A DNA stretch of 64,000 bases from an uncultured Candidatus Poseidoniales archaeon (lineage in GTDB: Archaea; Thermoplasmatota; Poseidoniia; Poseidoniales; Poseidoniaceae). Below are positions 15,900 through 28,010 of the stretch, one piece after another. The notes beneath the pieces are model-generated. The model did no database searches, was not told the DNA's origin, and worked only from the letters and a program-made list of their open reading frames with translations. Made by a program: the position numbers and the translations under genes. How positions within the stretch are numbered: position 1 is the stretch's first letter; each line of letters opens with the position of its first letter. Location of the stretch: NCBI GenBank assembly GCA_905182185.1, contig CAJJAP010000004.1, forward strand, positions 5,773-69,772, read 5' to 3'.

Positions 15900-16811
15900 T
15901 CAACTACCAATTCCAGATAGCAATGTTACGACTCTAATCGAATCGTGTAAGTCATCACTCACTCTTGCTCCGAGAATTACTTGGGCATCAACATCCAGCG
16001 CAGCAGTAAACATGCTCGCAACTGTTTCGACTTGACCAATGGTCATCCCTTGACCACCCTCGATTTGAATTAAACAACCCTTAGCACCACTGACATCTAA
16101 TTCTGCCAAAGGTGCCATCATCGCCGATTTCAAAATCTCTTCCGGTTCATCTGCCCTTCCTACACCGACTAGCATAGTGGCTCCACCTTCGGCATCAACA
16201 ATTGCCCTTAGATCCATTAAATCCAAATTGATTAAGCCCATTCTTAGTAGAGTCCTGACTAAACCATCTACTAAATCTTCAATCCATTCAGCACCCATCT
16301 GCCATGCTGTACCCTTTTCTCTCGCTTGTCTTGCAAGTCTTTCAAGTGACAATTGTACTGTAATATGTGCATTGCTTTGTAAACGTTCAAGTCCTTCAGC
16401 AGCGATTTTCGCTCGTGTCTCTTGTATTTCGAAAGGTAATGCTGCCACCGACAATACGACCGCCCCAGATTGCCGCGCTTGTCGGGCAAATTCATGAGCT
16501 GCTCCCGTACCAGAGCCGCCGCCCAATCCGACTAGCAAAACAACCAATTCAACATCCTCTAAGATCGTTCTAGCAAGAGGTGCGAGCCCCCTCATTCGTT
16601 GTTCTGCCAAAGGAGGTAAAGCAGCACAACCGACTGAATCTAATGTATGTCCTAAGCGCAATACATGGGCCGAGTCACAACCTGTTAAACTAGAATCATC
16701 AGCATCAATAAGAACTAAGTCAGCGCCTCTTCCACACTTTTCATAAGCTCTTTTTGCCCAAGCACAACCTAAACCACCAACACCGGCAATTAGGATTTGT
16801 GAGGCTTCCAT
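15900..16811 (-). CDS. Divergent FtsZ/tubulin-family GTPase
   Basis: IAGVGGLG, IDAD, LGGGSGTG, LPF, GLINLDLMDL, C-terminal VILGA..IRVVTLLSGI. Confidence 0.85.
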   Translation of the reverse strand: MEASQILIAGVGGLGCAWAKRAYEKCGRGADLVLIDADDSSLTGCDSAHVLRLGHTLDSVGCAALPPLAEQRMRGLAPLARTILEDVELVVLLVGLGGGSGTGAAHEFARQARQSGAVVLSVAALPFEIQETRAKIAAEGLERLQSNAHITVQLSLERLARQAREKGTAWQMGAEWIEDLVDGLVRTLLRMGLINLDLMDLRAIVDAEGGATMLVGVGRADEPEEILKSAMMAPLAELDVSGAKGCLIQIEGGQGMTIGQVETVASMFTAALDVDAQVILGARVSDDLHDSIRVVTLLSGIGS

Positions 16812-16868
16812 CGACCTAATGGTGGCGATGAACCTCAATGAACTTTGGCTGTAGATATTTTCTTAATC

Positions 16869-17168: not shown

Positions 17169-17401
17169 TCACTTCACCTTTCGTGTCCACGAGTAGGTAG
17201 TCAATCAAACCTTTCATTGCTAGACTCAACAATATTGTAAAAAATGGAAGATTTAACATTCCCAGAAGATTAAATTTCATAGGAATTACCCCCTATTATA
17301 CGGATATTCAAAACGCAACACTGCGAGTCATTTATCCATCACAATTGCAAGCAATGTTTAAGGGGTCCACCCAAGTCGCTAAGAACATCTTGGGTGCTGC
17401 T

Positions 17402-18217
17402 ATGCGAGTTGGTTCTTTTTCTACGAGAATTACCCTTCTTTTGGGGCTGGTAGGGCTATTGCTACTTCCGAGCCTTGCAACATCATATCACACCGGCATT
17501 GGAGGAGAACAATCCAATGCTGGAGAGACTATTGATGATGTGGCAAAGCAAGGCTGCTTATGCCATAATGGCGCAGCTGATAATTCGATTCAGGTAATTC
17601 TTGACAAAGTCCCATATGCTTGGAATGCTGGCGACACATATGAATTCAACTTGCAACTAATCGGCGGACCTGCTGGCGGAATTTATACCGCTGGATTTTC
17701 AATGCGCACTAGTGCAGGCGAACTATCCGGCACAGACCTACAAAACTGGGAAGAAGACGTGACAACACTCACTCATACCGACGCATCTGCAAGCAAAGAT
17801 GACCGTTCGTGGCTTTTGACATGGACCGCTCCTGCTGCGGGAGAAGGTAGCGTTAATTTCTGGATTACTGGGAATTCGGTTTCAGGCGAGGGACTCCCTG
17901 GTGAAGATGACAAGTGGAATCAATTATTATTCGCCCTTCAGGAAGGAGATGCAGATAGTATCGCCCTTGGAACAAGAACTTTGTTTGCTGGTGATGGAAA
18001 TGTTAGCCCTCCTGCACCCTCTTCACATGGAGTCGATCTACACAGCATGGGAGCCCCGCTAAGAGCGCACTGGCTCGGATTACTCGGATTTGGCGCTGTA
18101 ATCATTGTAATAATATTCTCAGGCCTAATGCTAAGATATGGATTCTCCACCTCCTACAAGGGACGTAGCAATGCTCTACGTCTCCGCTACAAATTGATGC
18201 AGAGAGGTGACCAGTGA
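17402..18217 (+). CDS. Membrane-anchored Reeler/choice-of-anchor-V-like protein with CxCH motif
   Basis: Signal peptide, GCLCH, beta-sandwich-type motifs (WTAPAAGEGSVNFWITGNSV), C-terminal TM; first gene of the respiratory operon. Confidence 0.6.
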   Translation: MRVGSFSTRITLLLGLVGLLLLPSLATSYHTGIGGEQSNAGETIDDVAKQGCLCHNGAADNSIQVILDKVPYAWNAGDTYEFNLQLIGGPAGGIYTAGFSMRTSAGELSGTDLQNWEEDVTTLTHTDASASKDDRSWLLTWTAPAAGEGSVNFWITGNSVSGEGLPGEDDKWNQLLFALQEGDADSIALGTRTLFAGDGNVSPPAPSSHGVDLHSMGAPLRAHWLGLLGFGAVIIVIIFSGLMLRYGFSTSYKGRSNALRLRYKLMQRGDQ

Positions 18218-18660
18218 TGGATGATACAATCACGACCCTGTTGCGAGGTGTTGCAAAAGGAAACATCAGTATCGCTGATGCGAGAACTGCTTTGGAAAGT
18301 GCTTCACTGACTGAAGAACAGATGCAGAAAGCAATCGACCATGGAGTATTCAATCCTGCCGAACTGGGATCCATCGTCAGTGCAACCCTAGCCCCTTCAG
18401 GCGCATCACATCTGGCAATGTTCTTCTTCGTCTGGGGATTATTTTGGAGTTGCTACTGGTCTTTTTCATTAATCTATGGACTACTACATGGTTGGGACCA
18501 ACAACAATTATCATTCCATTTAGCCATGACATTAACGACCATAATAATGATGGGAATAATCTACCTAAAATATATCCTACCTGACACTATTATCGTCAAA
18601 TATGCTATGAATAAGTTCGTAACTGAGCATAAAAAGGACTGGAAGGAGTACAACTGGTGA
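18217..18660 (+). CDS. Hypothetical 2-TM protein in the Rieske/cytochrome b operon
   Basis: 148-aa ORF abutting both neighbours; two hydrophobic helices. Confidence 0.65.
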   Translation: MDDTITTLLRGVAKGNISIADARTALESASLTEEQMQKAIDHGVFNPAELGSIVSATLAPSGASHLAMFFFVWGLFWSCYWSFSLIYGLLHGWDQQQLSFHLAMTLTTIIMMGIIYLKYILPDTIIVKYAMNKFVTEHKKDWKEYNW

Positions 18661-18665
18661 TTATT

Positions 18666-19514
18666 ATGGCTCGCGAATACGAACTCAAACCGGCACCAAG
18701 TGGTGAACAATCTTCTACAAAAACAGCAGGAGATTCATTAATCAATAGACGCCAATTCCTTAGTTATGGATTCAATACTGCCACAGGCGTACTAGCGGCT
18801 TCACTGGGAGTTCTTGGTTTCGCATCCCTATTGCTGCCACCTGGCGGTAGCACCGGTGGCGACCTTGCTGCAAAATACTGGGCTAAGGGTCGTGAAGATG
18901 AGGCATGGTATGGAGCAATGCATGAACAAGTAATGAAGAAATCTGATTTCGTTGCTGAGGCAGCAAAGAGCTCCACCGGAACATCAGGAGCGGCTGGTGT
19001 TTGGAACGGAGTTCCAATAGTAGTAACATATGTAAACCATTCAAAGAATGCTGGAACCCCTTTATCAAATGGTAAAGCACGATTCCAATTCATGGAAGGA
19101 TATGATGGAACTGGAAAATATGTTGGCCATTTTGATGACTTGGCTGATGCAGACCCAAGACTATCACCCTCTGAGAATTTAGTAATGATTTTTGCAAGGT
19201 GTACACATTTGTGCTGCATCCCAGGTTGGCAATTAGTTTCTAACTCTTATACTGAAGATACATGGACTCCAGGCGGAGGTGATGATGGTGGAACAAAATT
19301 ATTCTGTATTTGCCACTCCTCACGTTTCGACCCTACTGCTTTAGAGATGAACACTAATACAAATCGTTCTAATGGTGCTAAATTCAAGTACGCTGGCATT
19401 CGCAGAGCCGGCGGCCCTGCGCCAGTAGGATTACCAATAATCCCGATTGCCATGAATGGCGATATTATTGAAGGATTACCAGATTATGTGGATTGGTACA
19501 CATTTTGCGACTGA
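18666..19514 (+). CDS. Rieske [2Fe-2S] subunit of a cytochrome bc/b6f-type complex
   Basis: Tat-like RRQFL plus TM; boxes CTHLCC and CICHSSRF; GGPAPVGLP; GGTGA RBS. Confidence 0.92.
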   Translation: MAREYELKPAPSGEQSSTKTAGDSLINRRQFLSYGFNTATGVLAASLGVLGFASLLLPPGGSTGGDLAAKYWAKGREDEAWYGAMHEQVMKKSDFVAEAAKSSTGTSGAAGVWNGVPIVVTYVNHSKNAGTPLSNGKARFQFMEGYDGTGKYVGHFDDLADADPRLSPSENLVMIFARCTHLCCIPGWQLVSNSYTEDTWTPGGGDDGGTKLFCICHSSRFDPTALEMNTNTNRSNGAKFKYAGIRRAGGPAPVGLPIIPIAMNGDIIEGLPDYVDWYTFCD

Positions 19515-19525
19515 GGTGAAATGAA

Positions 19526-20392
19526 ATGACAACAATGTTTTGGATTCTTTGGTTCTTCATCGTGTTCGTAGTGGTTCTTGTAGCATTCACCCTACGCAAG
19601 GAATCAGAAGAGATGCCTCGTAGAGACATTCTTCGTGCTGTTGAGTCAACAGGAAAAATGGGTGTGGCAGAGCGATCTTTTCTCTGGGTATTCTCTTGGC
19701 TGGATACTAGATTTAGATTACAAGACTATTGGAATATGTCGAAAGGTGCCTACTATAACATGCACAGGCAAATGCCGCTAAGTCACGCAGAAAAGTACAA
19801 ATTGAGAATCATTTGGTACTGGTACCCACTATACTGCCTCGGTGGAATCTCATTCCTATCATTCATTATCTTGGTAATTACCGGAACTGTTCTTGGAATT
19901 TATTACGTACCTGGAGGAGAAGGTGACCCTGCTCCCGCATATGCAAGTATGCAATATATCATGACCGAATTGCCATTTGGATATATCCTTCGTGCGGTTC
20001 ACCATTGGACTACTCACTTTATGGTAGCAAGTGTATTCTTACATATGTGCAGAGTTTACTTTACTGGAGCATACAGAAACCCTCGTGAATTAAACTGGCT
20101 TATTGGAGTCGCACTGATGTTCCTAACCATCTTCTTTGGCTACTCTGGATATTTACTACCTTGGGATTCCTTGGCATATGGTGCTGCTGTTATCGGAATT
20201 AACATGGCCAATTCATCACCGTTGATAGGAAAGATTGCTTCAACTGCCCTATTCGGTGGTACATCGCTAACTCCTCGAACCGTTACAAGAATGTACTTTA
20301 TTCACGTATTTATTCTCCCTGTGATTGTGACATTGTTGATCATCATTCACTTGTTTATTGTCTGGGTGCAGGGCATTGCGGAGCCACATTGA
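19526..20392 (+). CDS. petB: Cytochrome b6-type (split) cytochrome b
   Basis: YCLGG, RAVHHW..FLHMCRVY, RELNWLIG, GYLLPWD, RMYFIHVFILP..IIHL; ends after helix D. Confidence 0.95.
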   Translation: MTTMFWILWFFIVFVVVLVAFTLRKESEEMPRRDILRAVESTGKMGVAERSFLWVFSWLDTRFRLQDYWNMSKGAYYNMHRQMPLSHAEKYKLRIIWYWYPLYCLGGISFLSFIILVITGTVLGIYYVPGGEGDPAPAYASMQYIMTELPFGYILRAVHHWTTHFMVASVFLHMCRVYFTGAYRNPRELNWLIGVALMFLTIFFGYSGYLLPWDSLAYGAAVIGINMANSSPLIGKIASTALFGGTSLTPRTVTRMYFIHVFILPVIVTLLIIIHLFIVWVQGIAEPH

Positions 20393-20411: not shown

Positions 20412-23225
20412 ATGGGATTAGTAGAAAATCTTGGAAGAGTTGCTTCCTCCTACATGGATGAGAAGGAAAACTTGCAGAGCGTTGAAGGAAAGAGAGAACG
20501 TACACGAATGGGACATGCTTTTTGGCCACATGAAGTCCTCCGTGACGTACTTATCTTTTCGTTTATGGGTGCAGTATTGTTATTCTATTCTTGGCTTATA
20601 CCACCACCATTACACAGTGCTGCCGACCCATATGCTCAAGCAGGATTCGTTTTCCCTGATTGGTATGTATTATTTTCATATGGATACCTTCGTTGGGGAG
20701 AGTATCTACCGCAATTCTCCGTACCTACCGGATTCCTAGGAGATATATTTGGTCAACCTTCGTTCCCTTGGAACGCTGCATGGTGGGGAGCTGCTCTTAC
20801 TGGAATTCCAGTAGGAATACTACTACTTCCACCATTGATTGGAGGTCGTGAAAAGAGACCTGTAGAAGACCCTTGGTTTGCAAGTGCAGGCGTAGTATAT
20901 CTTGCACACGTATGGTTTATCTCTGTCTTTTCGATTAATATCTTCTTGAAACTATATGGCAATAATAGATCTGATTATTGTAAATTGGATTCTCATGGAG
21001 ACCTGTTATGTGGTGCAAGAGACCCCTGGGTTGCGGATTTGTTCAATGCCATTCCGTGGATATTGACTGGTATTTTAATATGGATTATTATTTATTTCGT
21101 GGCTAGAACAATGATGGTAAAGGCTTGGGGTGCTGGCTTCACTCCAGCACATGGCAAGAGAATTCTTGTTGGAGCATTGATGGTTTCAACTGCAATATCA
21201 GTTTCTACTTGGGATGTTTATGATGATGGTTTCTGGGATGCAAAGGGATTGCTCACCATTTCCGATTATGAGGAACTTGAAGCGATGAGGTCACAACCAG
21301 TTGATGTTCATGTTCATGATACCAATGAATTTACTGACGCACAAGGTTGGTCTACTACAGAGATAGTACCAACCACTGCTTGGCTTGATTGGAACTTATA
21401 CCAACCCGCTAGATATATTATTACTGATTTTGGCGATGCCAATGGACATCAAGATGCTGCTAATGAAATAAATGCTGCAGCGGTCACAGATTCATTCTCT
21501 GGAGAGGCTGAATGGATTGCAATAGGCTCATTTACAGTTACTGAAGATTCAACCTACTTCCCTTATGGGCATCACAAGTCTGTAGAAACAATTACCACTG
21601 ATATGAAGTGCGAGTATAGATCTAGTGAAAGAAAGATCGGTGAATTATCTACTGCCGATATGTTGACTTCAACTTTCATGGTTACCGACTCATCTGGAAA
21701 GACAGTTTCATCATTCACTGGATGTGATGGAGCAACTGTTGAACTCAAGGTTGGAACCTATGACTACCAAATGACTGTCCAAGCAACTGGTTTACTTGCT
21801 CAAAACTCCTCAATTATGACTGAAGCTTCTATGGAGATCGCTTCATTCCAACCACTATTGGTTTGGGACGAGGATGCTCACTCAAGTCTTGCTGGTACGA
21901 GTGTCAATCTTTCAAGTTCCGAGGATATGGCTCTTGGAGATGGAAAATTCGCACCTATTGAGAATCCATCGTATCATAGAAATCCTAAATCCTTAGATGC
22001 AAAACTTACCTATGCTATGTTTATTCCATGTCTAACATTCGGCGCCCTTGTATTCGTATTACTAAGATACATGGCTCGTGGATATGAGTTCGAGATGAAC
22101 AAGTGCTACGGCTGTGACCTTTGTGATGATGCTTGTCCTGTCCGCCTATTCACTGGTGGAGACAAATTAAACATCATTTACAATTCTTGGAATAACGAAG
22201 ATGATGGTGTCCCGATGTATTCATGTTTGACATGTTCTGCTTGTACTAACGCCTGTCCGCAACTTGTCGATTACGACTCTTATGTAGATATTAGGCGTGG
22301 ACTAATTGTTGGTGCATCTCAAGCAGAGATACCTCACACTGTCCTTCAAGCAGTTCTTGCTGCTGAGGCAGAGGAAGAAGCCGATGCAGACTTCATCACA
22401 ACCGAAGATTATCCAATTAATTCCAAGGTGGGATACTATCCTGGATGTGTCGACTATCTTGACCAAGAGATGGTATTTTCACATGTCAATGATGGTGAGA
22501 TGAACTTAGGAGCCTCAACAACCGCTGCTTTCACTTTGTTTGAAGAGATGGGCAACGAAGTTTCATATCTTGGAAGAGACTTCCTAAAGTGCTGTGGCCA
22601 CGATCAAAAGTGGCAAGGTCTTGATGAAGTGTTTGAAAAACTAAAGGCATACAATCAACGTAAGATTGAGGAATCTGGAATAGATACCCTCGTATCTTCT
22701 TGTGCTGAATGTTTCAGAACATTTGCTCGGGATTATGAGCTAGAAGGTATCAAGGTAATGCACACAACTGAATATCTAACCGAGCAAGGATTTGATATGA
22801 ACTTGAGTACTGAAGAGACCACTGTGACATATCATGACCCATGTAGACTAGGACGTCAAATGGGAGTCTATGATGAACCACGTGATTTGATTACAGCCGT
22901 TGAGGGTGTTAATTTGGTTGAGATGGAACATAGTGGAGAGGATGCAATGTGTTGTGGTGTTTCGAGCATGATGTCATGTAACGAAGATGCTCGTTCACTT
23001 CGTGTATCTCGTATGGAAGAAATCCGTGCTACTGGAGCAGATACGATGCTCACATCGTGTCCTAAATGTGTTGCTCACTTTGAGTGTTTGAAGTTTGAAG
23101 GTGATGAACAGTATGCAGATATTGAAATCCTTGATGTTGTTACATTCTTGGCACGACAAGTTGATGCAAAGAAATCTGAACTAGTTGCTGCAAATACTGA
23201 TGCACAAGACCAAATCAAAGCTTGA
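20412..23225 (+). CDS. Cytochrome b subunit IV (PetD-like) fused to an extracellular domain and an HdrD/GlpC-like 2x[4Fe-4S] + 2xCCG oxidoreductase
   Basis: FWPHEVLRD, AADP, FPDWY; then CYGCDLCDDACP and CLTCSACTNACP; YYPGC, CCG, SCAEC, YHDPCRLGR, CCG, SCPKC. Confidence 0.9.
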   Translation: MGLVENLGRVASSYMDEKENLQSVEGKRERTRMGHAFWPHEVLRDVLIFSFMGAVLLFYSWLIPPPLHSAADPYAQAGFVFPDWYVLFSYGYLRWGEYLPQFSVPTGFLGDIFGQPSFPWNAAWWGAALTGIPVGILLLPPLIGGREKRPVEDPWFASAGVVYLAHVWFISVFSINIFLKLYGNNRSDYCKLDSHGDLLCGARDPWVADLFNAIPWILTGILIWIIIYFVARTMMVKAWGAGFTPAHGKRILVGALMVSTAISVSTWDVYDDGFWDAKGLLTISDYEELEAMRSQPVDVHVHDTNEFTDAQGWSTTEIVPTTAWLDWNLYQPARYIITDFGDANGHQDAANEINAAAVTDSFSGEAEWIAIGSFTVTEDSTYFPYGHHKSVETITTDMKCEYRSSERKIGELSTADMLTSTFMVTDSSGKTVSSFTGCDGATVELKVGTYDYQMTVQATGLLAQNSSIMTEASMEIASFQPLLVWDEDAHSSLAGTSVNLSSSEDMALGDGKFAPIENPSYHRNPKSLDAKLTYAMFIPCLTFGALVFVLLRYMARGYEFEMNKCYGCDLCDDACPVRLFTGGDKLNIIYNSWNNEDDGVPMYSCLTCSACTNACPQLVDYDSYVDIRRGLIVGASQAEIPHTVLQAVLAAEAEEEADADFITTEDYPINSKVGYYPGCVDYLDQEMVFSHVNDGEMNLGASTTAAFTLFEEMGNEVSYLGRDFLKCCGHDQKWQGLDEVFEKLKAYNQRKIEESGIDTLVSSCAECFRTFARDYELEGIKVMHTTEYLTEQGFDMNLSTEETTVTYHDPCRLGRQMGVYDEPRDLITAVEGVNLVEMEHSGEDAMCCGVSSMMSCNEDARSLRVSRMEEIRATGADTMLTSCPKCVAHFECLKFEGDEQYADIEILDVVTFLARQVDAKKSELVAANTDAQDQIKA

Positions 23226-23269: not shown

Positions 23270-23965
23270 GTGTTGTCACTAGCGCCATTCATGAACAGAC
23301 CTGCTTTGTATGTACTTACAATCGGCATCGGTTTGTACATCAGTGCTACTGGCCTGAATGGAATCATTCCGGACCATTGGGCTGAATGGCCAGTCAATAT
23401 TTGGTGCTGGTCTGTATTTGCATATATATTCTATAAGACCACTCGAAAGGAGCGTATTGAGATGCTGACTGTGTTGGCATTTGCCACCCCAATGGAACTA
23501 TTTTTTAGTGAAGTTTGGCTAATCTATGAATACCAACGAGGACTAATGCCCCTATTCGTTCCAGTGGGTCATTATTTCTTATTTGACCTGGGCAGGATTA
23601 TCGCCAATAAGATGAGAGAGAACCTCGCCATAATTTGCTTGACCCCATTTATTCCACTTGTCGCTTATGGCGTTTATAGCGGTGGCGATACGTCTGCGTT
23701 ATTCCTCCTGATACTGGTACTCGCATTCACAAAATGGGGACCTCAACCTCGATTATATGTTGCAATGGCTTGGGCGGCCTTAGCTATGGAATTATGGGGC
23801 ACACACTTGACCAATTGGACATGGGCTAACGAAGTCCCATGGACGGGACTAACCGCTTGGAATCCACCGCTATTGGTTGGTGCATTCTATTGTGTTGGAG
23901 ATTTATTGGTCAACCTTAGTGTTGCCAAGTTTGAAAGAGAAGTGACGGCTGAGGTGGTAGTATGA
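23270..23965 (+). CDS. Hypothetical multi-pass membrane protein
   Basis: 231-aa ORF with about 7 hydrophobic segments; overlaps the ferredoxin start (ATGA). Confidence 0.7.
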   Translation: MLSLAPFMNRPALYVLTIGIGLYISATGLNGIIPDHWAEWPVNIWCWSVFAYIFYKTTRKERIEMLTVLAFATPMELFFSEVWLIYEYQRGLMPLFVPVGHYFLFDLGRIIANKMRENLAIICLTPFIPLVAYGVYSGGDTSALFLLILVLAFTKWGPQPRLYVAMAWAALAMELWGTHLTNWTWANEVPWTGLTAWNPPLLVGAFYCVGDLLVNLSVAKFEREVTAEVVV

Positions 23966-24294
23966 CCACCAGTGACGAGTTGGCGACGAGACGAGCGGCT
24001 GAGGCTCTGGCCATCCGTACATCTCTAAATCGTCAGCGCGGAGTGCAGCGCGCTAATACAAAGGGTGGTGAAGGAACTGTTGCCTATGTTACTGCAGAGA
24101 AATGTATTGGCTGCGATCAATGTACAATCGTCTGTGATGATAATGCAATTGACATATACAAAGTAGAGATGGCCAGTCAATTCATCAAAGTGGAAAGTAA
24201 TCGCAAGGCCAAGATTATTCGCGATGCTTGTACTGGCTGTAGATTGTGCGTACTCGCTTGTCCTACAGACGCTATAACAATGATTGATTTGTGA
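23962..24294 (+). CDS. 2x[4Fe-4S] dicluster ferredoxin with N-terminal extension
   Basis: CIGCDQCTIVC and CTGCRLCVLACP. Confidence 0.9.
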   Translation: MTTSDELATRRAAEALAIRTSLNRQRGVQRANTKGGEGTVAYVTAEKCIGCDQCTIVCDDNAIDIYKVEMASQFIKVESNRKAKIIRDACTGCRLCVLACPTDAITMIDL

Positions 24295-24303
24295 GGAATT
24301 ACC

Positions 24304-24606
24304 ATGACAAAAGATGATGATGAAGAAGTTCAAAGATTCGGAGGAGAATTCGGACCTTACCGCAAGGAAGGGACTTCAGGAGTAAGCCTCGGAACATTCA
24401 AAACATTGGTCTGGACTTCCAATATAGGTGGACTTTTACTATGTGCATTATCCCTTGAAATGCTATTTGTTCGTAAAATGTTTGGCTGGGGATTATTGGC
24501 CCTAATGGCTGCAGTTGCCATCGCTTTATTCCCCTCAAATTATGAAATCGTTGGAATGGGTGATGAATCTATCACCTCCACCGATGATCAAAACACACAG
24601 GATTGA
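24304..24606 (+). CDS. Small 2-TM hypothetical protein
   Basis: GAGGA RBS; two hydrophobic helices; last gene of the operon. Confidence 0.65.
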   Translation: MTKDDDEEVQRFGGEFGPYRKEGTSGVSLGTFKTLVWTSNIGGLLLCALSLEMLFVRKMFGWGLLALMAAVAIALFPSNYEIVGMGDESITSTDDQNTQD

Positions 24607-24736: not shown

Positions 24737-25966
24737 TCAAACAGATGATTCATTAGCATACTTTATTGCTTCAGCACCCATTGCCAACATCGACAATTCT
24801 GCTACTAAAGCATGCCATCCCTTTGCATGCTCTCCATAGAGATGACCCACTTCAGATGAATCAAAGAATTCTGCACTAGGCGAGTTCAAATTATCCATAT
24901 CACCCTTCTTAGCATTTATTCTATAGAACCAGGATGCGGCTTCACCATCGACCAAATAAACAACAGGTTCAACTGGTGCTCCACCTTCTTCTGTTAGAAG
25001 AGTTGGAACTCCTTCTTGAATTAAGAAATTTTCAACATCTGCACCGCCTTTGGAATACATTAGTTTCTTCATTTTTCTATTGGACAGTTCAAGTAACTGC
25101 TCTCCCCGCTTGACCGCCATAATACCGAGTCCATATGTTCCTCTATCATTTTTTACAAAAACAACAGGCTCTCTTTCGATTCCAAGGGATTCATATTTTT
25201 CTTTAATCTGTTTAATAAATTCGTCTACTTCTGCCGCTAATTCAATCCTGCAATTCTCTTTTTCAAGACATTTATTCTTTGAAACAAACCAATTCGCCAT
25301 CAAATGCCAACTATCAATTTCTAACAATTGTGCCATCTCATCAACATATTGCTGCAAACAAGCATAATGTTCTGATTTCCTACGGCGATGCCATCCCATA
25401 CTCGGAGGCGGGCTCACATTATTGGCAGACAATCCAGGCACTATCCCTTCAGTAAGATCATTATTTAGCAATATCAAGCAAGGTCTTTCCCCTTCTACGA
25501 ATAACTCTTCCTTCCCATTTTCAAGTTTTAATTCAACTGTTGACAATTGCAACGGACCTGAAATCCCTGCCAAAGAACCATGAGCAGATAATTCAGGTGA
25601 ACCAACTGTACATCTGAAACCGGAAAGGTGTATTAAACGTTGAATAGTCGCTACATTCTCGACATATCCTGCATTCCGAGTATGTGATTCAGGGTACAGA
25701 TGAACCCATTCACATTTGGTTTTAAGTCTTAAAATATGATTTTTAAGAAGATTTGCAAGATGTGGTTCATCCTCCTTTGAAACATTGTTGAATCCGGCTG
25801 GAAAGTGATTGGCATCAACAACTGCGACCTTCCATCCAGCATCCCTCACATCAACACTACCATAGATTGGAATTGGCACTTCACTGCGCTTCTTTGCCAT
25901 CCATGCTGTGATCTGTTCTCTCTTAGATTCAAGTATTTGTGAGTATTCATGCACGTAATTCATCAT
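24737..25966 (-). CDS. gshA: Glutamate--cysteine ligase (GshA, PF08886-type ATP-grasp family)
   Basis: PIYGSVDVRDAGWKVAVVDANHFPAGFNN, ILLNNDL, VKNDRGTYGLGIM, IQEGVPT. Confidence 0.85.
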   Translation of the reverse strand: MMNYVHEYSQILESKREQITAWMAKKRSEVPIPIYGSVDVRDAGWKVAVVDANHFPAGFNNVSKEDEPHLANLLKNHILRLKTKCEWVHLYPESHTRNAGYVENVATIQRLIHLSGFRCTVGSPELSAHGSLAGISGPLQLSTVELKLENGKEELFVEGERPCLILLNNDLTEGIVPGLSANNVSPPPSMGWHRRRKSEHYACLQQYVDEMAQLLEIDSWHLMANWFVSKNKCLEKENCRIELAAEVDEFIKQIKEKYESLGIEREPVVFVKNDRGTYGLGIMAVKRGEQLLELSNRKMKKLMYSKGGADVENFLIQEGVPTLLTEEGGAPVEPVVYLVDGEAASWFYRINAKKGDMDNLNSPSAEFFDSSEVGHLYGEHAKGWHALVAELSMLAMGAEAIKYANESSV

Positions 25967-27744
25967 ATCACCTCATCCAGTAAATCAATTGCTGTTCCCG
26001 AACGCTTACTTCTACCACCATCAACAATATGCATTGCTTCAAACAATCCCAAACCTATCGCCAAATCAGGTTGATCTTTGAAAGCACCACTAATAAGTGG
26101 GTACTTACTCATTATTTGCTGCGCTCTTCCATCTAATTGTTGTAGCATATTGTGCAACAACTTAGGAGATGTTGCTGTACCGGCTGGTAATTTTGGTCTA
26201 CGTACAATTTCTGCTGGTAATTTAGTCAAATCAGCAGCACGGCGCAAGGCTATTTTCTCTTCAAATGAAGGTGGAAGGCGCCACTTCATCGGTAACTTAT
26301 GTGATGCTTGGCGGTGCGACTTGCCGAGGAATGGAACTCTAACTTCAAGAGAATGCGCCATAGAATGTCTATCGACTAAGCGTAATTGGAAATTACTCAA
26401 CTGCCCACTATCCAATTCAAATTGTAAGAAGTCATCTAATGAAGAGGTATGGGCAGTAGCTGAATGGTCATTTGAATAATAATAATCTCCAATAGGTAAT
26501 TGACCATTTTCAATGATTGATTTCGATGGGTGGTCCATCATATCAAAGCGAGATTGAATCACACTAGAATGATGCTCTAGATCTCTATAACGTGGATACC
26601 CTGCATGAAGTTCATCCGCTCCTTGACCGCATAATCCAACTGTTACCGATTCTGACATTTTCTCAAACAGTGGCTGGAAGAATAGAACAGTTACATCCAA
26701 ATCTTCACCATGCCAAGCCAAATCAGGTAACATTTTATCAAACGAATCCTCTTGTAAAATATGTTGATGATGTTCTAACTCAAGGCTTGATGCTACTAAC
26801 TCAGCAGCCTGCCAGTCAGGGTTTTCTTCACTCTCTGCAACCGTCCAACATGCAGGAACGGGATTACCACTTCTTTGGGCTGCTTCGTGAGCAACTGCGG
26901 CAACTAAACTAGAATCCAGTCCCCCGGAAAGTACTATGCCAACCGGCACATCTGACATCAACCTCTCTTCAACACTAACAACGAAAGATTCCAGTAACTT
27001 ACTAGCCTCTAAATCTGGATTCCATGTATCTGCAGGTTCTACCTTCTGCCTTTCCACGGTTGCTTTACCAGTTAATACTGCGCAACCATTGTTGTCAAGA
27101 CTCCATGTCTCAACTGTTCCTGGCTTTATTTGTGCAACATCCTTCAGCAGTGTTGTTCCATCTAAAGGGTACTCCCAAGCCAACCTTGCCACCAATGCAA
27201 GTTCATCGATTTGGGGTATATGTCCTTCATGGGCCCTAAGGGCTTTGGCTTCACTTGCAAATAGTAGACTACCATCAACCTCGGTCCTCATCAATGGCTT
27301 AATCCCCATAGGGTCTCTAGCCAATAGCAATTGCTTATCTTTTGGATTCCATATCGCTATCGCATACATTCCATTGAGTTGAGAGAGCCATTGCGCATGT
27401 TGTTTAGCGGAAAGTTTACCGTTATTTGTCGCTAATGCATTCTCATGTAGAGCCAGTATGGTCTCACTATCACCATTTGTAGTCCATGGATAGTGAGCCT
27501 GATTTTTGCGGAGATTTAGATGATTGTAAATCTCTCCATTGGCGATCAAAATATTTCCACTCTGCGCAGATATCGGTTGGTCACTTCCACTGATATCAAC
27601 AATCGCCAATCGAGTGTGTCCGAGTGCTATGCTTTCATCACTCCAAATGTCATTGCCATCTGGGCCTCGATGACGCATCAACAGATTCATTCGTTCTATT
27701 ACGGCGGAATCGGGGTTTCCAAACATACCACCAATACCGCACAC
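25963..27744 (-). CDS. asnB: Asparagine synthase B-family glutamine amidotransferase
   Basis: GTG start at 27744 exposes the Ntn Cys (CGIGG); HRGPD, GHTRLAIVD, NGEIYN, RDPMGIKPL, LSGGLDSS, GQGADEL. Confidence 0.9.
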   Translation of the reverse strand: MCGIGGMFGNPDSAVIERMNLLMRHRGPDGNDIWSDESIALGHTRLAIVDISGSDQPISAQSGNILIANGEIYNHLNLRKNQAHYPWTTNGDSETILALHENALATNNGKLSAKQHAQWLSQLNGMYAIAIWNPKDKQLLLARDPMGIKPLMRTEVDGSLLFASEAKALRAHEGHIPQIDELALVARLAWEYPLDGTTLLKDVAQIKPGTVETWSLDNNGCAVLTGKATVERQKVEPADTWNPDLEASKLLESFVVSVEERLMSDVPVGIVLSGGLDSSLVAAVAHEAAQRSGNPVPACWTVAESEENPDWQAAELVASSLELEHHQHILQEDSFDKMLPDLAWHGEDLDVTVLFFQPLFEKMSESVTVGLCGQGADELHAGYPRYRDLEHHSSVIQSRFDMMDHPSKSIIENGQLPIGDYYYSNDHSATAHTSSLDDFLQFELDSGQLSNFQLRLVDRHSMAHSLEVRVPFLGKSHRQASHKLPMKWRLPPSFEEKIALRRAADLTKLPAEIVRRPKLPAGTATSPKLLHNMLQQLDGRAQQIMSKYPLISGAFKDQPDLAIGLGLFEAMHIVDGGRSKRSGTAIDLLDEVI

Positions 27745-28010
27745 AGTAAAAGGTGTAAACCACCTCCTTTTCAATGGTTGTAAATAACCATGAATCAATT
27801 CACAGTAATACACTTAGACTGGCATCACCAAAGAGGCCATCTAAACATAGTAAATACAAGAGCTAAGACCGAAATACCAAAAAAGATGTAATATGATGTT
27901 TGAGGTGGGTCATTGGATTCGTTTTCCTCAGACATGGTAGTTCACTATTCCAAAGGGGAGAGCAACCACCATTTCAACATATTGAGGAATATGAATGGCT
28001 TTTTGCTAAA

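Follow-up and report, generated by a model that had tools for sequence, protein, structure and literature searches.

A subunit IV of the Rieske/cytochrome b6 complex fused to an HdrD-like Fe-S module in Marine Group II archaea: a predicted cytoplasmic redox port

Bacterial 'PDWF-FeS' cytochrome b fusions carry 4Fe-4S and MvhD domains and have neither a Rieske partner nor CCG domains (Kao & Hunte 2014). A cytoplasmic flavoprotein is the electron source in EtfD and the Syntrophus EMO; from it the path leads by way of non-cubane clusters and a pair of cubane clusters to heme b and then menaquinone, and the last cubane cluster of EtfD lies ~7 Å from the heme (PMC13083937; bioRxiv 10.64898/2026.08.18.745454). 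In HdrABC, HdrBC is the high-potential accepting branch of HdrA, and "HdrD-like proteins" encoded in HdrA clusters have been noted without an assigned function (Chadwick et al. 2022, PMC9012536). Marine Group II (MGII) archaea are reported to be aerobic heterotrophs without methanogenesis, in which genome surveys recorded a Rieske protein and a cytochrome b but no canonical bc1 complex, along with an orphan "RnfB" and an "MGII specific" complex III; a fusion protein is not mentioned (Tully 2019, PMC6336850). These archaea were not covered by reviews of cytochrome bc evolution that drew on complete genomes, and the CxGG motif was reported absent from archaeal short cytochromes b (Dibrova 2017). 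Here we analysed a 64,000-nucleotide (nt) stretch of contig CAJJAP010000004.1 (positions 5,773 to 69,772; assembly GCA_905182185.1) from an uncultured Candidatus Poseidoniales archaeon, hereafter the window, and describe one of its open reading frames (ORFs), which joins a subunit IV of a Rieske/cytochrome b6 complex to an HdrD-like iron-sulfur (Fe-S)/CCG module.

The fusion ORF (20412..23225, + strand) starts with ATG, encodes 937 amino acids (aa) and contains no internal stops. Its Fe-S module of ~390 residues consists of an HdrC-like, ferredoxin-like domain with two predicted cubane [4Fe-4S] clusters (aa 560-620; 22089..22271, +; Pfam Fer4_8/9/10, with the 4Fe-4S dicluster domain at aa 561-617), followed by two HdrB-like CCG domains (aa ~672-892; 22425..23087, +; PF02754, E 7e-24), each with a full five-Cys non-cubane motif. 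Inspection by eye located two CxxCxxCxxxCP motifs (C565-C575 and C605-C615) and two complete CXnCCGXmCXXC motifs (C679/C727/C728/C764/C767 and C811/C847/C848/C883/C886), and all 18 cluster cysteines (8 cubane and 10 CCG), together with long flanking stretches, were invariant in an alignment of 55 Poseidoniales sequences. The domain layout given in the original prediction, two CxxCxxCxxxCP motifs plus two CCG domains, was confirmed. By sequence, the sole strong match of the module in the PDB was mycobacterial EtfD (9ojn_A, 8.6e-25); by fold, Foldseek returned EtfD (1.7e-11), LutA and HdrB, with TM-scores of 0.54-0.72. None of the NCBIfam equivalog cut-offs was reached by the module, the best being TfrB with 111 bits against a cut-off of 385, and a named identity as TfrB, LdhH, GlpC, DsrK, GlcF or HdrB was rejected because all of these matches fell below their cut-offs. 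The AlphaFold model of the whole fusion had a mean predicted local distance difference test score (pLDDT) of 68 and a predicted template modelling score (pTM) of 0.47.

The N-terminal part (aa 1-185; 20412..20966, +) is subunit IV-like, with a predicted cytoplasmic N-terminus, helix E, the PDWY motif of the quinol-oxidation (Qo) site, and helices F and G. The first 280 residues of the window protein alone gave no Pfam matches, and its N-terminus gave a weak PDB match to b6f subunit IV (E 0.12, residues 33-94 against 27-89). A profile built from 13 N-terminal sequences, comprising four Poseidoniales proteins and nine shorter relatives, matched 48 PDB entries, all 48 being cytochrome b C-terminal halves or subunit IV, with the best matches to Paracoccus cytochrome b residues 230-380 (2.7e-14) and to subunit IV (4e-9); individually, 10 of the 13 N-termini matched PF00032 (best 3.8e-14). 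The FWPHE and PDWY motifs, on which the original prediction had based a PetD/subunit-IV start, lie at residues 37-41 and 82-85. PDWY was invariant across the 55 Poseidoniales sequences and 13 diverse fusions, and W38, P39 and E41 were also invariant in the Poseidoniales alignment; in the alignment of the weak PDB match, E41 falls opposite Asp35 of b6f subunit IV. The subunit-IV region of the AlphaFold model was too uncertain for structural confirmation, and the model of a short fusion gave weak QcrB matches (E about 2e-3).

Hydropathy analysis revealed six hydrophobic helices (residues 46-64, 127-145, 161-179, 213-231, 251-269 and 532-550), with AlphaFold helices at the same positions, in agreement with the earlier count of about six. 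The chain does not end after helix G, as there are six helices here and four in the short relatives described below. The extra helices TM4 and TM5 (aa 206-269; 21027..21218, +; AlphaFold helices 206-242 and 245-265) are followed by an acidic, beta-rich domain predicted to lie outside the cell (aa 270-531; 21219..22004, +) and by the sixth helix (aa 532-550; 22005..22061, +; AlphaFold helix 538-566), which would return the chain to the cytoplasm. The N-terminus of b6f subunit IV lies on the negative, cytoplasm-equivalent side of the membrane. Because the N-terminus is expected to be cytoplasmic and the helix count is even, both here and in the short relatives, the Fe-S module is placed on the cytoplasmic side. 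The loop at 232-250 has four K/R and no D/E, consistent with the cytoplasmic side, whereas the 262-residue stretch at 270-531 has 14 K/R against 42 D/E; R552, R556 and K564 follow the sixth helix. Cysteine pairs occur in the predicted outside segments (C190/C200 invariant and C400/C438 nearly invariant in the 55 sequences), and a twin-arginine motif was found in the Rieske protein only. Together these features support a cytoplasmic module, as originally proposed from the helix count. Since its first Fe-S motif starts 15 residues past the sixth helix, the cubane domain would sit beside the membrane, as in EtfD/EMO and HdrDE.

The outside domain was modelled with beta strands at pLDDT 80-92. It is specific to Poseidoniales, poorly conserved in sequence and missing from the short fusions. 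Foldseek revealed weak jelly-roll/GOLD-like similarity, and its identification as a cupredoxin or heme domain was rejected, no conserved metal-binding motifs having been found.

A protein search returned 474 homologues. The best 120 came from Poseidoniales metagenome-assembled genomes (MAGs), were mostly 900-970 aa long with 58-94% identity, and were annotated, where annotations were present, just as "Fe-S oxidoreductase" or "heterodisulfide reductase-related". The intact fusion was found in 41 of 41 relatives from three families and 11 genera, and each of the 66 Poseidoniales genomes in a sample of the phylum had it too; an assembly or gene-calling artefact was rejected on these counts, and the fusion extends well beyond the assembly in which it was noticed. 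In-frame stops were flagged in some genomes, and the one case checked (L013, G029) proved by ORF scan to be an intact ORF of 929 aa. A single cytochrome b6 and a single subunit-IV-like sequence, namely the fusion, were found per Poseidoniales genome, which makes the complex containing the fusion the host's only complex III and the fusion the subunit IV of its only Rieske/cytochrome b6 complex.

The genes immediately upstream encode the other core subunits. The Rieske [2Fe-2S] protein (18657..19514, +) has a twin-arginine translocation (Tat) signal (RRQFL) and the cluster boxes CTHLCC and CICHSS, and matched TIGR01416 with E 3.8e-9, below the family cut-off. It precedes a four-helix, split-type cytochrome b6 (19526..20392, +; PF00033, E 3.5e-41), whose gene lies 19 nt upstream of the fusion and which contains the YCLGG heme-ci/cn motif in the form YPLYCLGG. 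The YCLGG cysteine binds heme ci/cn in b6f, and YP[LF]YCLGG was kept by the partner cytochrome b6 in all eight related archaeal loci compared (L007-L014). Downstream, the operon encodes a 110-aa 2x[4Fe-4S] ferredoxin (23962..24294, +; Pfam Fer4_21, E 3e-14) of the kind annotated 'RnfB' in MGII, which followed the fusion in the Poseidoniales loci compared and which we infer to be the orphan "RnfB" of the MGII surveys.

Beyond Poseidoniales, short fusions of 540-790 aa without the outside domain were found in other Thermoplasmatota families (loci L007, L008, L009 and L012) and in MAGs labelled Thermoplasmata, Thermoplasmatota, "Methanobacteriota", Candidatus Bathyarchaeia (L029), Candidatus Geothermarchaeales (L030) and uncultured archaeon (L031). 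For the GC-rich relatives, ORF limits come from a scan of our own, with a possible error of a few codons. These proteins have four helices (E, F, G and an H-like helix) right before the first Fe-S motif. Most of the loci checked (L008, L009, L024, L027, L028, L030 and L031) encode HdrA-like and MvhD-like proteins downstream, giving the operon order b6 - subIV::HdrD - HdrA-like - MvhD-like. The form of HdrA varies: in L008, L024, L027 and L028, two ORFs jointly match HdrA (in the L008-type pair, PDB HdrA at 3.8e-35 and NCBIfam HdrA models at 1e-44 to 1e-52) and are followed by an MvhD-like gene; L009 has a 596-aa protein in which an MvhD domain (FlpD, 3e-16) is joined to HdrA parts and a ferredoxin domain; and L030 and L031 have a fused double HdrA of 1010-1024 aa (3e-192 to PDB 5odc_A), again followed by an MvhD-like gene. 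In one fused lineage (L008, P0130 and P0133), a Cys has been lost from the first CCG motif, which reads CVG or CTG.

The gene is divided in a sister order within the class (by GTDB taxonomy probably Marine Group III), with the break behind the ferredoxin domain (L010 7411-9584 and L011 6854-9024), so that subunit IV and the HdrC-like part form one protein and an HdrB-sized CCG protein of ~300 aa is encoded by a separate gene. A 336-aa protein labelled 'Halobacteria archaeon' (P0278) likewise comprises subunit IV and a ferredoxin domain. Other variations were seen around the short fusions. Cytochromes b6 with long N-terminal outside extensions were encoded at L008 9564-12020 (-), L007 10086-11948 (-) and L009 5003-7618 (+); the extensions contain Ig-like domains in all three and a plastocyanin/azurin-type cupredoxin domain in L008, the latter suggesting a blue-copper acceptor fused to the complex. 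A second CCG protein of 712-727 aa is encoded a few kb downstream of the short fusion in one Thermoplasmata lineage (L009 13741-15879 and L012 10226-12409), and the Pfam scan of the L009 copy gave LUD, 4Fe-4S and CCG domains, a LutB/LdhH-like arrangement.

The nearest stand-alone homologues of the module are proteins of ~350 aa from anaerobic methanotrophic archaea of group ANME-2, Methanoperedens, Methanosarcinaceae and Bathyarchaeia, with 42-44% identity to residues 562-920, and in five of the seven loci examined they adjoin a fused double HdrA and MvhD. A phylogeny of CCG modules was computed by maximum likelihood from 42 modules. All fused modules formed one clade (support 100/99), within which Poseidoniales were monophyletic (100/100) and adjoined the Thermoplasmata sequence L007, while the soluble HdrD-like proteins of HdrA clusters formed the sister group of the fused clade (97/95). 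This topology fits a single fusion event, in which an HdrA-associated HdrD-like protein was joined to subunit IV. The ancestral complex comprised Rieske, b6, subIV::HdrD, HdrA and MvhD, a set that survives in other archaea.

Poseidoniales differ from these relatives in their HdrA content. No HdrA and MvhD genes adjoin the fusion, and searches of 17 Poseidoniales genomes with the HdrA2 model returned ferredoxin-domain and Rossmann fragments but no HdrA. The top HdrA2-model match in the genome of the window was the operon's 110-aa ferredoxin, at model positions 568-627. This ferredoxin shares 37-43% identity with the ferredoxin domain at the C-terminus of the double HdrA proteins (within aa ~900-1005), and the two occupy equivalent downstream positions. 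These comparisons indicate that Poseidoniales have lost the HdrA flavoprotein and retained the HdrD wire, and that the 110-aa ferredoxin is probably a remnant of the HdrA C-terminal ferredoxin domain.

Taken together, these results make it very likely that the module is a redox port of some kind. Its cluster chain would connect a cytoplasmic protein partner, in Poseidoniales probably the ferredoxin encoded downstream, with heme bH, with heme ci (bound through the YCLGG cysteine) and with the site of quinone reduction. We propose that ferredoxin-level donors, for example those formed by 2-oxoacid:ferredoxin oxidoreductases, feed electrons into the module and so reduce quinone at the inner site, the resulting quinol being oxidised by the normal Q cycle. 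A hard-wired link of the complex to a cytoplasmic donor or acceptor had already been proposed in the original prediction, and the relatives with HdrA and MvhD beside the fusion strengthen this proposal. The partners listed there, namely thiol/disulfide, hydroxy-acid or ferredoxin chemistry, can be narrowed: a ferredoxin or HdrA-type partner is favoured, whereas a link to the nearby gshA-like gene was not conserved.

Inward flow, from a ferredoxin-level donor to quinone, is in our judgement the best explanation, held with modest confidence, and is probably to be preferred over outward flow. It is favoured because the EtfD/EMO precedent runs inward and because HdrBC accepts electrons from HdrA, so that quinone would take the place of the heterodisulfide. 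Genome content points the same way, since 2-oxoacid:ferredoxin oxidoreductases were found in all 11 genomes searched of these Poseidoniales, which degrade peptides and lipids, and NuoF (PF01512) was missing from nine of the 11, being seen in one genus; Poseidoniales complex I thus appears to be mostly of the 11-subunit type. Electron flow from heme bL to bH is opposed by the membrane potential, which makes an outward, low-potential product less favourable. The loss of a Cys from the first CCG motif in one fused lineage fits a wire, not a catalytic site, in that lineage.

Several observations weigh against this explanation. Both CCG motifs of the fusion are complete, as in the catalytic subunits HdrB and HdrD, whereas the first motif is degenerate in EtfD. 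In HdrDE, the other membrane-bound precedent, the CCG site receives its electrons from the membrane. Ferredoxin could already be oxidised by the 11-subunit complex I. The ferredoxin domain was weakly modelled in both the fusion and a short fusion (pLDDT about 30-40), and the status of the 110-aa ferredoxin as an HdrA remnant is based on position and on 37-43% identity between domains of a generically similar type.

The first two of these observations are also what would be expected of the opposite direction, a quinol-driven, HdrDE-like reductase powered by Q-cycle bifurcation. In this scheme, quinol oxidation at Qo would be pulled by the Rieske/oxidase branch, the second electron would pass from bL through bH and heme ci to the HdrD module, and the CCG site would reduce a cytoplasmic disulfide or ferredoxin. 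HdrDE works in this direction, and the two five-Cys motifs are not only complete but invariant, unlike the degenerate first motif of EtfD and of the EtfD paralogue in the same genome. Comparable outward roles are proposed for anammox Rieske/cytochrome b complexes (PMC12954380). The best NCBIfam match, TfrB, is a thiol-using enzyme, although its cut-off and those of the other families were all unreached. Against this reading, no disulfide-carrier or thiol-cofactor genes were conserved with the operon, and the adjacency of gshA was missing in another Poseidoniales family. Moreover, electrons moving toward the cytoplasmic side would work against the membrane potential, and the Cys loss in the lineage of L008, P0130 and P0133 suggests a wire there. 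On balance, we regard outward flow as unlikely, though it is the strongest of the competing explanations.

The match to EtfD raises the further possibility that the module is a docking and entry site for electron-transfer flavoprotein (ETF), so that the complex would itself act as an ETF:quinone oxidoreductase in the oxidation of fatty acids and amino acids. Mycobacterial EtfD is the nearest solved structure by both sequence and fold, and EtfAB genes were present in 13 of 13 genomes. However, the genome encodes a separate and far closer EtfD homologue of 701 aa (2.8e-99 to 9ojn_A) with its own heme-b-type membrane domain, homologues of which were found in 39 of the 41 relatives searched; the fused module lies far from this paralogue in the tree, and etfAB is unlinked to the operon. 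An ETF partner is improbable because a true EtfD is encoded elsewhere in the genome, which gives the host an ETF-to-quinone route apart from this complex. That gene lies outside the window (G000:C8:5925-8030; L018 1926-4031) and matches 9ojn_A over two stretches; etfAB is likewise outside the window (G000:C4:180617-182297; L019 5618-7298). A module without electron transfer, kept as a structural, assembly or redox-sensing leftover of an ancestral Hdr-coupled complex, would fit the loss of the HdrA and MvhD partners in Poseidoniales and the lack of nearby catalytic partners beyond the small ferredoxin, but is similarly improbable: in three families with 58-94% overall identity, the 18 cysteines and their long flanks do not vary, whereas the outside domain drifts freely, which indicates strong purifying selection on cofactor binding.

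The relatives that carry HdrA and MvhD allow a more tentative proposal. In these, the HdrA flavin might split electron pairs, with one branch going to ferredoxin and the other, carried by the HdrD wire and heme ci, reaching the quinone site of a Rieske/b6 complex that runs a Q cycle, so that two known kinds of electron bifurcation would be joined; the MGII form would then be a pared-down route from ferredoxin through heme ci to quinone. In the HdrA-bearing relatives, flavin-based bifurcation may accordingly prove to be physically coupled to the quinone-based kind, and the fusion family as a whole offers a natural test of electron exchange between heme ci and cytoplasmic carriers. Should the module prove to be an electron port on the inner side, models of ferredoxin reoxidation and energy conservation in MGII heterotrophs, which belong to an abundant group of marine archaea, will need revision. 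A ferredoxin:quinone reductase route has long been debated for the chloroplast b6f complex in cyclic electron flow, and a hard-wired ferredoxin - heme ci - quinone connection in MGII would, if true, be a natural single-operon case of it. All of the parts are of known kinds; the combination is new, as is its link to HdrA and MvhD. We found no published description of the fusion, including in the reviews of Dibrova 2017, Kao & Hunte 2014 and Baymann 2012, in keeping with the earlier statement that no characterised bc complex is known to be built this way.

The remaining genes of the operon are less readily assigned. The first (17345..18217, +) encodes a membrane-anchored extracellular protein with a 'choice-of-anchor V' domain (NCBIfam NF041895, E 6e-23); homologues occupy the same position in Poseidoniales loci L013 and L014 and in sister-order loci L010 and L011, and the protein is a candidate outside partner of the complex. 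It is followed by a 148-aa small membrane protein with no family matches (18214..18660, +), homologues of which lie upstream of the Rieske gene in L010-L014, with more in L027 and L030. Between the fusion and the ferredoxin lies a 231-aa polytopic membrane protein (23270..23965, +), also without family matches, whose gene overlaps that of the ferredoxin by 4 nt. No homologue of it was found in L013 or L014, which represent another Poseidoniales family and otherwise have the same operon order, and it stands outside the core of the system. The last gene of the operon encodes a 100-aa small membrane protein with no family matches (24304..24606, +) and is conserved after the ferredoxin in L013 and L014.

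On the flanks, a gshA/asnB-like pair (24737-27813, -) is convergent on the operon. A link to a thiol system through this pair was considered and rejected, as the pair is missing from the neighbourhood in another Poseidoniales family and in all other lineages checked. An FtsZ-like gene upstream of the operon (15900-16838, -) is kept in two other Poseidoniales genera (L013 and L014), with 44-47% identity.

With cytochrome b6f and the Firmicute/heliobacterial b6-type complexes the locus shares the split cytochrome b, the YCLGG heme-ci cysteine, the P(D/E)WY motif on subunit IV, the Tat-exported Rieske protein and the gene order Rieske - b6 - subunit IV. It differs from them in having six helices in subunit IV (four in the relatives) instead of three, in the added cytoplasmic Fe-S module, in the lack of a c-type cytochrome gene in the operon and in its archaeal host. 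Like the bacterial PDWF-FeS fusions and the anammox Rieske/cytochrome b complexes, it joins a cytochrome b-type complex to extra cytoplasmic redox modules, which in those systems include 4Fe-4S domains, MvhD and flavoproteins; the anammox complexes, however, use separate NAD(P)-type subunits.

The module itself resembles those of HdrDE, DsrMK, TmcBC and HmcEF, in which a heme-b membrane protein bears, on its cytoplasmic side, an HdrD-type unit with two cubane clusters and two CCG domains, and the fusion has the same two CxxCxxCxxxCP and two complete CXnCCGXmCXXC motifs as HdrD. The membrane partner in HdrDE and its relatives is a NarI-type cytochrome b, whereas here it is a Rieske/b6 complex with both Qo and quinone-reduction (Qi) sites; the host is an aerobic heterotroph and not a methanogen, and the family cut-offs were unreached. 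EtfD/EMO (PDB 9ojn) provides the best solved match and the same order of non-cubane cluster, cubane clusters, heme b and quinone. EtfD, however, has its own five-helix heme-b domain, which is missing from the fusion, and its first CCG motif, reduced to four Cys, reads CTG (CSG in the genome's paralogue) where the fusion has CCG at 727-729. Closest to the module are the soluble HdrD-like homologues from ANME-2, Methanoperedens, Methanosarcinaceae and Bathyarchaeia, which share with it the CCGHD..W signature and, with its short fused forms, the HdrA and MvhD neighbours; unlike the fusion, these proteins are soluble and have no membrane part.

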